From contig CAVQVO010000017.1 in NCBI GenBank assembly GCA_963717115.1, positions 1,018,133 to 1,082,132 of the forward strand: a DNA stretch of 64,000 nt. Direction: 5' to 3'. The notes beneath the pieces are model-generated. The model was not told where the DNA came from, ran no database searches, and worked only from the letters and a program-made list of their open reading frames with translations. How positions within the stretch are numbered: position 1 is the stretch's first letter; each line of letters opens with the position of its first letter. This DNA comes from an uncultured Acidimicrobiales bacterium (GTDB lineage Bacteria; Actinomycetota; Acidimicrobiia; Acidimicrobiales; SZUA-35). Both the position numbers and the translations under genes were made by a program. Of this stretch, positions 15,930-63,899 are shown in pieces.

Positions 15930-16883
15930 GATGGCTCCTGTGGTTCTGGCGAGAGTTGTTCGGGCGCCGTCTCGGCGAGCGCCCGGGCTTCGGTCAAGAC
16001 GTCGGTCAGGGTCTGCTCGAGCGGGATGGTCGGGGTCCACCCGGTGTCGGTGTGGAGGCGCTGCGCCGATCCACGGTTGACCGGGACCTCGATGGGGCGA
16101 AGCAGCGCGGGGTCGACCGCCGTGGTGACCTCGACGGTGGCCATGGCGCGCATGGTGTCGAGGATCTCGCTCATGGCAACGTCGTGGCCCGTGCAGATGT
16201 TGTAGGTCCGGCCGGGCACGCCCCGTTCGGCCAGCAGCCGGTAGGCCCGGACCGTGTCGCGCACGTCGGTGAAGTCTCGTCGGGCGGTGAGGTCACCGTG
16301 GACCAGTTCGCCCCCGCCGGCCCGCTCGGCCTCGGCGATGCGGTGGGCGAAGGCCGGCACCACGAACCGCGGGGACTGTCCGGGACCGATGTGGTTGAAC
16401 GGTCGGGCGATCACGATGTCGAGGTCGGCGTTGCACTGGAACTGCTGGGCCAGGATCTCGGCCGCCAGCTTCGACGACCCCGTAGGGCGAGGCCGGGTTC
16501 GGTGGCTGCTCGTCGAGGATCGGCATGGCCGACGGGTCGAGGGGTCCGTAGACGTCGGCACTCGAGATGAGGACGAGACGATCGACGCCTGCGGCTTCGG
16601 CCGCTTCGAGCACGGCGAGCGTGCCCTCGGTGTTGACCCGCCAGGTCTGCCGGGCGGCCCGCCACGAGGCACCGACGTCGCTCCACCCGGCGAGGTGGTA
16701 GATCACGTCGGGTGCGGCGGCGGCGACGAACTCGGCCCAGCCCTCGAAGTCGAGCAGATCCGGTCCGGGCTGCGTCGGATCGTTGAGATCGCTCCCGACC
16801 GCCGTGTCGCCGGCGTCGGCCAGATGCCGCATGAGGTGCGGACCGACGAATCCGGACGCACCGGTCACAAGAGCTCTGGCCAC
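15926..16883 (-). pseudogene. rmd: GDP-4-dehydro-6-deoxy-D-mannose reductase (Rmd), frame broken once (+1) as assembled
   Basis: The N-terminal part is in ORF 16293..16883 (LVTGASGFVGPHL...SSADVYG...PASPYG). The C-terminal part is in ORF 15926..16672 (SSKLAAE...ARPFNHIGPGQ...RDFTDVRD...YNICTG...RLHTDTGW). The junction falls inside the YxxxK motif at a G4 run (plus-strand cccc at 16478-16481). Total length is 958 nt = 3n+1. Confidence 0.85.
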
Positions 16884-17007
16884 GGCGCCAGGTTAGCGAG
16901 GGGTCCGGCCGTTCCGAGCCGACGCCCCACGCGGCCCGAACTCGATCCGGGTCGGGAAGGCAGGGGTGCCCGGTGGAACGATCGGGGAGCGATAGTCTGC
17001 GAGCCTC

Positions 17008-20000
17008 GTGACCGACTCCCCGACGGCCGCAGCCTCCACCGCACCGACGACCCTCGTCGTGGGATCCGAGGCTCTGGAACGACCTCTCGCCCCACTCGAG
17101 GCCCCAGAGGTCGCGCTTGGCGATGACGGAGGTCCGCCGATCGTGGCGGTCGTCGTCGTCGACGAACTCCGTCCCGATCTGAACCTGACGCTCGAATCGA
17201 TCGCCGCCCAGGAGTACACGAATTTCTCGGTGCTCGTGGTCGATGCCGCCGGCGAGGAGCCGATCGCCGACCGAGTCGCCGAGATCCTCCCCGATGCGTT
17301 CCTGCATCGGATGCCGAACCGTCCGGGGCGGGCCGTCGCCGCCAATCAGGCGCTCGAACTGGTCTCGGGAGCCTCGTTCTTCCTGTTCGTCACCGTCGGA
17401 CACATGCTCGAACCCTCGGCGACGTCGACCCTGATCGAGGAGCTGTACCGCTCCAACGCCGGCATCGTCACGCCGAAGATCGTCGATGCGCACGATCCGC
17501 GACGCCTCCGCAAGGTGGGCATGGGTTCGGACCGATTCGGCGTCCAGGTCGACCTGGTCGAACCGGGCGAGTTCGACCAGGAGCAGTACGACACGGTTCG
17601 CGACGTCTTCGTCGCGCCGGCCGGGGTCCAGCTGATCCGGGCCGACCTGTTCCGGGCCCTCGGCGGATTCGACCCCGTGATGGTCCGGTACGGGGCGGAC
17701 CTCGATCTCTGCTGGCGGGCCCACGTTGCGGGTGCCCGAGTGGTCGCCGTGCCGCGAGCCGTGGTCCGGTCGGCGTTCAAGGAGTCCGACTCCGACGAGC
17801 GCCGTCGCCAACTGGGCCGGCATCGGCTCCGTACCCTGCTCGTCGCCTCCACCAAGCTCCACCTCGTTCGGGTCCTGCCGTTCGCCCTGCTGCTGCTCGT
17901 CGCCGAAGCGGTCTACTCGGTCGTCGCGGGACGGAGGCGCCAGGCCCGCGATGCCCTCGGGGCGATCGGCTGGAACCTGACGAACCTCGCCGACATCCGT
18001 CGGCGTCGCAAAGAGATGGCCTCGCTGCGGGGTGTGTCGGATCGCGAGGTCGTCGCGCTGGCGGTCCCCGGGTCGGCACGACTGAGCGGGTTCTTCCGTG
18101 GTCAGTTCGACGTCGGTGACCGGGTCGTCAGTTTCGCCGGGACCTTCCGGGACTCCTTCACCGGGCAGGACGCCGGCTCCTTCCGTGACGGCTTCGTCAT
18201 CAGCTCGCTGGTCGGGCTGGTCATCCTGCTCGGGAGTCGCGGGCTGATCACCGGGGGTGTCACGCCGACCGGCCAGTTCCTCGACCTGCCCGGTGGCGGT
18301 GCGATGCTGCGCGAGTGGCTCGGTGGATGGCGCTCGGTCGGGACCGGTGGCTCGGGCAACCCGGCGACGGCCTTCGGCGTGCTCGGGGCGGCCAAGCTGG
18401 CCTTCTTCTGGGGCCCGGGCGTCTTCGACACCCTGCTCGTGATCGGGCCGCTGTTCATCGGGCCGTTCGGGGCCTGGCGCCTCGCCCGCACCTACGGCAG
18501 TCTGCGGGGGGCGGCGCTCGCCGCCCTCGCCTACGCCGCCAACCCGGTCGCCGTTTCGGCGATGGCCGCCGCTCGCTGGGACGCCCTCGTGGTCCATGCC
18601 GCCGGTCCGTTCCTGGCCGGGAGTGCGTTGCGGATCCAAGGATCGGCGCCGTTCGGCACGATCGGTGGCATGGCCGGCCCGGGCGTGATCGAGCGATCCC
18701 TGGCGATCCGCCTCCTGCGGTTCGGTGTCCTCGTCGCCGCCGTTGCCACGTTCGTGCCCGCCGTGATCCTGGTGGCCGTCGTGTTCTGCGCCGGGCTGCT
18801 CGTCAGCGGCGTCGTGATGGCCCGGCCGGGAGCGTCCGGCCGTCTCGTGCTGGCGGCGCTGGTCGCCGTGGCCACTCCGGCCGCCCTGCACGCTCCGTTC
18901 ACCTTCGACGTCATCCGGCGGGGCAGCTGGCGCTGGTTCGTCGGCGCCGATTCGCCCGAGGTCGCCTTCGACTCGCTGGCCGACCTGATCCGGTTCGCCC
19001 CCGGCGGGGTCGAGCCGCGGCTGCTGACGATCGGTGTCATCGCCGCCGCCTCGCTGGTGTTGCTGATCGGCAACGGCGTGCGGCTCGACGGTGGCATCCG
19101 AGCCTGGTCGTTGGCCGTGGTGTCCTGGGTCGTGATCTGGGTCGGACGCCGGGGCTGGATCGAGATCGATCTCCCCGCCGCGGAACTCATGCTCGTTCCG
19201 GCGGCGACCGGCATGGCGCTGGCGGTCGGAGCGGCCACCCGAGCCGTCGAGATCGACCTGGTCGGATTCCGCTTCGGGTGGCGTCAGGTGGTGGCGTTCC
19301 TCGGTGTCTTCGCGATGGCCGGGGCCGGCCTCCTCCTGCTGACCCAGGCCTACGGGGGTCGCTGGAAGATGCCCGAGCAGAGCTACGCGAACACGACCGC
19401 GCTCCTGGCCGAACAACTCGACGGTGCCAGCCGCATCCTGTGGATCGGCGCCCCGTCGGTGCTGCCCGTCGACACCATCGAGTCCGATCGCGGGATCTCC
19501 TACGCCCTGCTCGAAGGCACCGAGGCGTCGGTGTTCGGCCGCTGGATGCCGGGCCCCTACGGTCTCGATCGTCAGGTCGGTGAACAACTCGACCTGGCCG
19601 TCGACGACCAGACCGTCCGGCTCGGGCGACTCCTCGCTCCGTACGGCGTCGACTACGTCGTGGTGGTTCCCCGCCTGGCTCCGGCACCGCACGAGGGGCG
19701 GACGATCGATCCGCCGGCCGGCCTGCTCACGGCGCTGCTCGGGCAACTCGATCTCCAACGCGTGGCCGGAGTCTCCGATTTCACCGTCTTCCGGAACGAG
19801 GCCGCACAGGGGCCGGTCGTCGGTCTCGAAACCGAGATGACCGGGTTGCCGAATCGACCCGACGCCTTCCTCGACACCGACCTCGCCAACGGCCAGCGGA
19901 TGCGGGCCGAGTTCGGGCCCGGTGAATGGTCGGTGTCGGAGACCGCCCCCCGACCCGACGGTTCCCGGCCGCCGCAGCCGGTGAGCGTGCTCGTCTCGGT

Positions 20001-62959: not shown

Positions 62960-63016
62960 TCCTCGCTACGTTCCTCCGGTCGGGTCGGTCGGTCCGGACC
63001 GACCGGAGGAACTCCC

Positions 63017-63899
63017 ATGCGCATCAGTGCCGCCGGCATGTTCGGCAACAGTCCACGCCGTGACCTCGGCTTCATCCGGGCCTATGCCCAGACGTTGGAG
63101 GATCTCGGATTCCATGCGCTCCACGTGCCCGAGCACGTGGTGTTCTTCGCGTCGTACGAGTCGAAGTATCCGTACAGCGAGGACGGCTCGGCCAACTGGA
63201 GCCCCGACACCGGCCTGTTCGATCCGCTCTTCGTGGTGCAGGCGGCATCGGCGGCGACGACGTCGCTGCGCTTCTGCACCGGCGTGCTGATCCTGCCCCA
63301 GCGCCCGGCGTTGTTGACCGCCAAGGAGGTGCTCTCGCTCGACCACCTGACCGGTGGTCGGTTCGAGCTCGGCGTCGGGGCCGGGTGGTCGTGGGAGGAG
63401 TACGCCGCCCTCGGTGTGCCCTTCGCCCGCCGAGGCCGGCGCTTCGACGAGTACATCGAGGCGATTCGGGTGGCCTGGACCCAGGACCGGGCGAGCTACC
63501 GGGGCGAGTTCGTGGCGTTCGACGACGTCGTGCTCAACCCGAAGCCCCTGACGCCCGGAGGGCCGCCGATCATCATCGGCGGCGACTCCGAGGCGGCCAT
63601 GCGTCGGGCCGCCCGGCTGGGTGACGGCTGGTACGGGTGGTGGGCCCGTGGCGATCTCGCCATCCACCTCGACCGGCTGCGGTCGATCCTCGAGCGAGGC
63701 CGGCCGCTCGGTCGACGACGAGGACTTCAGTCTCAAACTCGGACTGCCGCTGGCCGACGAGTCGGTCGACGAGTTCGCCGCCAAGGTCGCAACGGCGCGA
63801 TCACTGGGAGTCGACGAACTCGTGATCGGCGGTCTCGTGCCGGCTTCGACGTTCGAGACGGTCCTGGCCGGCTACGCCGAGGTCTGTGGCCTGACCTGA
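63017..63899 (+). pseudogene. Luciferase-like (LLM class) F420-dependent oxidoreductase, frame broken once (+1) as assembled
   Basis: From ATG 63017 (RBS ggagga): GFHALHVPEH, LDHLTGGRFELGVGAGW and RLGDGWYGW. This frame has no stop before the window end, so it is absent from the ORF track. The conserved C-terminus (AGRSVDDEDFSLKL...ELVIGG) is in ORF 63621..63899. The junction is near 63690-63702. Length is 883 nt = 3n+1. Confidence 0.82.

Follow-up and report, generated by a model that had tools for sequence, protein, structure and literature searches.

Does a group of genes whose coding sequence passes into another frame part of the way along reflect a decaying genome, a programmed departure from the rules of decoding, or a defect of the assembly in which they are found? 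This question is raised by a 64-kb stretch of contig CAVQVO010000017.1 from an uncultured Acidimicrobiales bacterium (hereafter the window; about 68% G+C), in which nine reading-frame breaks split seven of some 50 genes, encoding an rmd-like dehydratase, FtsH, a large membrane protein, phosphomannomutase, mannose-6-phosphate isomerase, an LPXTG surface protein and an LLM-class oxidoreductase. As far as can be judged from the sequences compared here, the nine breaks are very probably consensus errors, each made of one spurious extra base, in a metagenome-assembled genome (MAG) built from long reads only; the underlying assembly is most likely a Nanopore assembly made with metaFlye and Medaka. 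In the living organism, the rmd-like, ftsH, membrane-protein, pmm, manA, LPXTG and LLM genes are almost certainly all intact. Systematic insertion of single bases was also the explanation favored in the original prediction, which was made from the window alone, and it is now supported by alignments showing one extra base, by the codon phase of the mismatches with a relative and by a survey in which comparable events are a property of Nanopore MAGs.

Reading-Frame Breaks in the Window

Reading frames in the window were checked by the G+C content at third codon positions and a codon-usage Viterbi segmentation, and by three-frame translations. Both confirmed the seven genes, the nine breaks, the location of every downstream part in the +1 frame and the gene lengths that had originally been reported (Table 1). 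The direction is uniform, all nine breaks passing from frame n to frame n+1, all single-break genes are 3n+1 nt long, and the breaks amount to 0.16 per kb of coding sequence. Among the other 43 genes of the window, in which every other same-strand frame switch was examined, there is no additional break and no –1 break, and neither nonsense mutations nor larger deletions are present. The observation that five of the nine breaks fall between 26.1 and 30.9 kb, while secA (36122..38995), the DEAD helicase gene (8807..11347) and the GT2 gene (17110..20205) are intact, was likewise reproduced; the clustering is modest, the probability of finding at least five breaks in 4.8 kb being about 0.012, a post hoc value. 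A ferredoxin gene (42906..43103) and a P450 gene (43111..44358) are intact as well.

Table 1. Genes of the window split by reading-frame breaks (window coordinates).
Gene or product	Position	Strand	Size	Break
rmd-like NAD-dependent epimerase/dehydratase (short-chain dehydrogenase/reductase, SDR)	15926..16883	-	958 nt	~16475-16477, within the SPYG(V/A)SK active-site motif
ftsH	22238..24128	-	1891 nt	23775, between the periplasmic domain and the second transmembrane helix
Large polytopic membrane protein	25419..28310 (start ~25419/25422)	+	~960 aa	26166, 27361, 27809
Phosphomannomutase (pmm)	28311..29715	+	1405 nt	28524
Mannose-6-phosphate isomerase (manA)	29720..30953	+	1234 nt	30850
LPXTG (LPLTG) surface protein	57126..58788	+	1663 nt	~58281, frame 0 to +1, in the Pro/Thr linker
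F420-dependent LLM-class oxidoreductase	63017..63899	+	883 nt	~63691-63695

The segmentation returned further frame switches at 5137, 7617, 20197, 21813, 35409 (the start of the HPF gene), 40174, 49299 and 54316, all of which are ordinary gene boundaries or mis-called starts, and another at 51541-51833, which corresponds to an out-of-frame N-terminal extension of the HTTM gene.

Once repaired, the products match known families. FtsH is recognized by TIGR01241 with 782 bits (cutoff 600) over model positions 6-598 of 598 in one stretch, ManA by TIGR00218 with 234 bits (cutoff 116) over residues 11-393, and the LLM protein by TIGR03619 with 252 bits (cutoff 167), with the junction covered. In the phosphomannomutase, the Pfam domain PGM_PMM_I (12-142) crosses the junction, and in the rmd-like protein the Pfam Epimerase model is matched over positions 1-240 of 240 in an unbroken stretch. 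No NCBIfam equivalog scored above its cutoff for the latter protein, and the name “rmd,” under which the gene had been reported, is not established; on its sequence, the gene is an SDR epimerase/dehydratase adjoining gmd. The large membrane protein matched no Pfam or NCBIfam family. Its homolog at locus L007 is a single open reading frame (ORF) of 1015 aa, on a contig whose name (k141_) indicates a MEGAHIT short-read assembly, and 76 of 80 JGI metagenome loci carry the membrane protein in one frame.

Comparison With the Closest Relative

A protein-guided scan with one genome per species identified as closest relative the uncultured Acidimicrobiales MAG MFD09779.bin.2.38, a Microflora Danica Nanopore-only MAG, in which the matching locus (L001) lies on contig_26056 (813 kb). 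The two phosphomannomutases share 94% aa identity, the DNA is about 85% identical, and L001 is collinear with the window from 18.6 to 39.6 kb; three other stretches of that contig (L081, L082, and L083) bring the coverage to nearly the entire window. No DNA of the same species was found in JGI metagenomes, either by an exact-pattern scan or by a protein-guided scan, where the best match had 71% aa identity.

In MAFFT alignments of the window with L001, L081 and L082, eight of the nine junctions differ from the sister DNA by exactly +1 nt (16477, 23775, 26166, 27361, 27809, 28524, 30850, and 63691). The orthologs of the rmd-like and LLM genes, which have one extra base in the window at 16477 and 63691, respectively, are intact in the relative at 322 and 293 aa. 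At the ninth junction the LPXTG linker is too divergent to be aligned with that of the relative, and +1 or –2 are both possible there. As for the nature of the inserted bases, the window has CCC in ftsH at 23775 where the relative has CC, and three or four of the insertions turn CC into CCC before G; in pmm an A is inserted between AAG and GGC, and in manA a T between CG and GGG. The original remark that several junctions sit at short G/C runs therefore holds, with runs only 2-4 nt long, and does not extend to pmm and manA, whose insertions involve no homopolymer. Homopolymers account for part of the sites only, and no sequence motif or methylation-like site is common to all nine junctions.

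Some 1-nt differences between the two genomes are not breaks of the window. The one at 8346 in manC is a deletion in L001, the frame of the window giving the conserved KISIDYALMEN...WDDVGSW; the one at 11392 is situated outside the DUF2461 gene, upstream of its true start; and several in prfB are errors of L001, the release factor 2 (RF2) of the window aligning without gaps with those of loci L004 and L008.

The alignments also tell which frame has been under selection. Mismatches between the window and L001 are concentrated where the repaired frame has its third codon positions; their phase shifts by one position at every one of the five junctions examined, all of them located between 26.1 and 30.9 kb. 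Across the membrane protein, the mismatch counts at the three phases pass from (27, 78, 37) to (18, 7, 131), then to (48, 6, 6) and finally to (1, 29, 7), and pmm and manA behave likewise, the reading frame remaining constant in L001 coordinates and the third-position bias persisting downstream of all five junctions. Since the divergence of about 15% was built up under unbroken frames, the insertions must either have arisen extremely recently or be spurious, and selection acted, at the five junctions tested, on the intact frames.

The end of the membrane-protein gene has peculiarities of its own. The repaired frame has no stop before pmm and runs in-frame into the pmm start codon, GTG at 28311, in the window and in the sister MAG (window 27810-28320; L001 9325-9790), and its tail (28100-28310) has no codon-phase signal. 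Directly upstream of pmm there is a conserved TTTCGTGAC...TATCTT-N6-GTG, which resembles the promoter of a leaderless transcript (predicted). As read from the sequence, the stopless join of the two genes may represent a fusion, read-through or an error common to both assemblies.

Distribution of Frame Changes Among Related Assemblies

Whether frame changes accompany the organism or the method was examined by a tblastn survey, in which the intact and repaired proteins of the window were used as queries and adjacent segments in different frames were scored in 81 related loci. Nine Microflora Danica Nanopore loci, with about 92 kb of aligned coding sequence, contained 12 frame-change events, 10 of which were +1, in ahcY, secA, ftsH, prfB and the membrane protein. 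This rate of 0.13 per kb matches the 0.16 per kb of the window. In the 72 other loci (434 kb), whose names (k141_, NODE_) mostly suggest short-read assemblies and which include a few complete chromosomes, no event was found, 57 being expected at the Microflora Danica rate. In addition, the 80 JGI metagenome loci, found via the membrane protein, contained two events in 422 kb.

The positions of the breaks differ from assembly to assembly, and essential genes are among those broken elsewhere: ahcY and secA in L002 and L031, ftsH in L053 and L065. The contig of the closest relative is itself broken by insertions in secA, prfB, ftsE and the UDP-glucose dehydrogenase gene and by a deletion in manC, and the window is intact at all of these genes; in particular, its prfB (39062-40180) is an uninterrupted ORF with no programmed +1 site, aligning gap-free with L004 and L008. 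The Microflora Danica long-read MAGs were produced from Nanopore reads only, with metaFlye (Flye) and one round of Medaka and with no short-read polishing, and their authors checked errors via coding density (PMC12313526). Indels in Nanopore consensus sequences and the frameshifts that they cause are a recognized problem, and a coverage of about 40-fold was needed for near-finished quality (Sereika et al., 2022, PMC9262707). The breaks follow the sequencing and assembly method and not phylogeny.

In locus L082 of the sister contig (12581-13662 and 17234-18527), manC carries a 1-nt deletion and a 1-nt insertion splits the UDP-glucose dehydrogenase gene into two called genes, and the prfB and ftsE of the sister MAG are scrambled by several indels.

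The LPXTG Linker

The break in the LPXTG gene lies in a Pro/Thr linker of (A/P)PTTV units, encoded by a 15-nt tandem repeat of about 10 copies (58267-58419), whose periodicity is disturbed at three places: one unit at 58281 has only 13 nt, an additional C is found near 58335, and a unit near 58378 is 14 nt long. The last two together change some 16 residues to RLDRPASDTGAPDHGA, at a place where a PT-rich sequence is expected. Judging from the periodicity, the irregularities near 58335 and 58378 are probably a compensating +1/–1 pair, and the gene may contain one –1 event. The earlier description of one single +1 break in this gene is therefore correct as to the shift from frame 0 to +1, and probably incomplete as to the number of indels, as the compensating pair would add two more.

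This is also the gene for which a real change deserves most attention, namely an inherited or phase-variable change in the length of the tandem repeat. The ortholog in the sister MAG also goes from frame 0 to +1 in the linker, a few codons away, so that a shared real change is conceivable and the case counts against an error in the window; both genomes switch frame shortly after a conserved STVQGSTIP motif, and tandem repeats are natural slippage sites. On the other hand, the two breaks are at different nucleotides and in different repeat units. In both genomes the +1 frame encodes a well-conserved LPLTG, transmembrane helix and Arg tail, which implies that this frame is translated. Homologs in five other assemblies are single ORFs, and in P0047-P0052 the N-domain, the PT linker and the sorting signal are joined in one ORF. 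Moreover, long-read consensus is weakest in repeat arrays, and this array shows the two further compensating length anomalies. We therefore consider a real change of the linker unlikely.

The products called from these broken genes are misleading at their ends. In the sister MAG (L081, 6900-7800), the called LPXTG product of 612 aa ends Arg-rich and out of frame, with the LPLTG signal in the +1 frame. The public protein P0046 (578 aa) is the frame-0 read-through of the broken LPXTG gene of the window (57126-58862), and its C-terminus is garbage.

Origin of the Insertions

The uniform +1 direction of the breaks most likely stems from a consensus error process biased toward insertions, common to sister assemblies obtained from like data. 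The original argument that nine of nine breaks in one direction are not expected from random indels stands against a 50:50 null (two-sided binomial p = 0.004), but the proper null is the error process of such assemblies: the sister Nanopore loci have about 3-5 insertions per deletion, and under a bias of this kind 9/9 is unremarkable.

The bias itself might arise if the consensus kept both alleles of a strain-level single-nucleotide polymorphism (SNP) at a third codon position, which would leave a 1-nt insertion. At each of the nine junctions the sequence can be taken as a codon in whose third position two synonymous bases stand side by side, CC[C,G] in ftsH, in two of the membrane-protein breaks and in LPXTG, AA[G,A] in pmm, CG[T,G] in manA, and GC[C,G] and GT[C,G] elsewhere, and random simulated insertions permit such a reading 42-47% of the time. 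Elsewhere in the Microflora Danica loci, eight of 11 +1 events agree with it, one of them a TA[C,T] seen by eye. We regard the retention of both alleles as a serious possibility that falls somewhat short of an even chance, and the over-calling of 2-3-nt G/C runs at low coverage as a possible cause that is about equally likely. The former mechanism would also account for the clustering of breaks in a cell-envelope glycan locus.

Besides the shift in the LPXTG linker of the sister MAG, several points weigh against the explanation by consensus error in the form given here. The technology behind the contig is inferred; ten proteins of the window are on record from one contig of 1,315,334 bp in NCBI and ENA, and the closest relative is a Nanopore MAG of the Microflora Danica set. 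The classical homopolymer error of Nanopore sequencing is usually a deletion in a long run, and the events in the window are insertions at runs of 1-4 nt, which makes any particular error mechanism tentative; the literature searched offers no specific account of an insertion bias of R10.4.1/Medaka in genomes of high G+C content. Finally, the doublet test is suggestive, as several placements are ambiguous in G+C-rich DNA and three of the 11 control events do not fit.

Alternative Explanations

If the breaks were true features of the genome, nine independent and recent 1-nt insertions could have turned seven genes of this strain into pseudogenes. The given sequence does carry the breaks, which are clustered, and genes for cell-envelope glycans and surface proteins (rmd-like, pmm, manA, the membrane protein, and LPXTG) are of a type that varies between strains; furthermore, the sister genome has an LPXTG break of a similar kind. 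Such decay would, however, have struck the ftsH copy of the window, and ftsH is normally indispensable, while leaving the other 43 genes free of nonsense mutations and larger deletions. It would also have proceeded by insertions only, although mutational decay in bacteria is biased toward deletions, and the codon-phase signal of purifying selection is fully kept in the downstream segments. Lastly, similar breaks in secA, ahcY, prfB and ftsH are confined to the Nanopore-only sister assemblies, with none in the 72 other loci. Taken together, these observations leave pseudogene formation only a slim chance.

Programmed +1 frameshifting or quadruplet decoding by the ribosome, for example at CCC-G, would instead restore full-length proteins from the sequence as it stands. 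The common +1 direction agrees with this, and four of the nine breaks (ftsH, the second and third of the membrane protein, and LPXTG) can be written as CCC-G, a context prone to +1 slippage by tRNA-Pro. Nevertheless, the frame of L001 is continuous at the eight junctions that can be aligned, and homologs in other assemblies show no frame change in the affected genes, with the LPXTG linker as the sole possible exception, so that shift sites are not conserved. Neither a 0-frame stop nor a rare codon is present at the junctions, where the 0 frame remains open for dozens more codons, and the junction 4-mers recur in-frame 28-573 times in intact genes of the window (CCC/G 197, GCC/G 573, and AAG/A 65). 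In addition, prfB, the classic gene with a programmed +1 shift, is a single ORF here. Recoding as the general explanation has, in our opinion, next to no chance of being correct. A mixed case can also be envisaged, in which some breaks are real, above all that of LPXTG, either as a phase-variable repeat that uncouples the surface domain from the sortase signal or as +1 recoding, in this lineage of the Acidimicrobiales, at sites of the CCC-G type; we find it highly improbable. Errors of the consensus thus remain our explanation of the nine breaks.

Neighboring Genes

The F420-related genes of the window, for CofD, an F420 ligase and the F420-dependent LLM oxidoreductase (12087-14954 and 63017-63899), adjoin a GDP-mannose/deoxyhexose set made of manC, gmd, the rmd-like gene, pmm and manA. 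This gene neighborhood suggests a locus for a mannose-based glycan of the cell envelope in an actinobacterium that uses F420. Two segments of the window have no counterpart in the sister contig, which is otherwise collinear. The first (3992-5137) is an additional GT4 glycosyltransferase gene; the second, a block of 3.7 kb (53010-56720), encodes an ABC ATPase, a permease, a glyoxalase-like protein and a protein of 409 aa that matches no Pfam family.

Implications for the Use of These Genomes

The breaks are no real biological feature and are a matter of data quality, which has practical consequences. About one gene in seven of the window (7 of ~50) is split or has a garbage C-terminus, and every 6-8 kb of coding sequence in the contig and its sister MAGs contains about one false frameshift. 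At 0.13-0.16 per kb, a 4-Mb genome of such quality would present several hundred genes, ftsH and secA included, falsely as pseudogenes. Metabolic reconstruction, counts of essential genes and pseudogenes and the building of protein families would be distorted as a result; false products, such as P0046, are already public. Users of the contig or of the sister MAGs are advised to apply short-read polishing or frameshift-aware annotation. If the origin from strain-level SNPs is true, a fixable weakness of consensus calling in mixed populations would be involved.

Comparison With Known Systems

The programmed frameshift of prfB (RF2) resembles the breaks described here in its +1 direction. Unlike it, the breaks have no conserved site or in-frame stop, the orthologs that can be compared are unshifted, and prfB itself is unshifted in this genome. 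With the pseudogenes of decaying genomes they share the interruption of several genes by frameshifts; what differs is that nonsense mutations and deletions are missing, that selection on codon phase is not relaxed, that essential genes are hit and that the pattern follows the technology. The closest parallel is with the indel errors of Nanopore-only assemblies, known from truncations of the IDEEL type (PMC9262707, PMC12313526), in which single-base indels split conserved ORFs, including those of essential genes. Like these errors, the breaks in this clade are restricted to Nanopore-only assemblies, at about 0.13-0.16 per kb of coding sequence, and short-read or reference-guided polishing would remove them. 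The textbook Nanopore error is the under-calling of long homopolymers, that is, a deletion, whereas nearly all the events seen here are insertions at runs of 1-4 nt, often beside a third codon position, a difference that hints at another cause, such as strain-level SNPs merged into the consensus.

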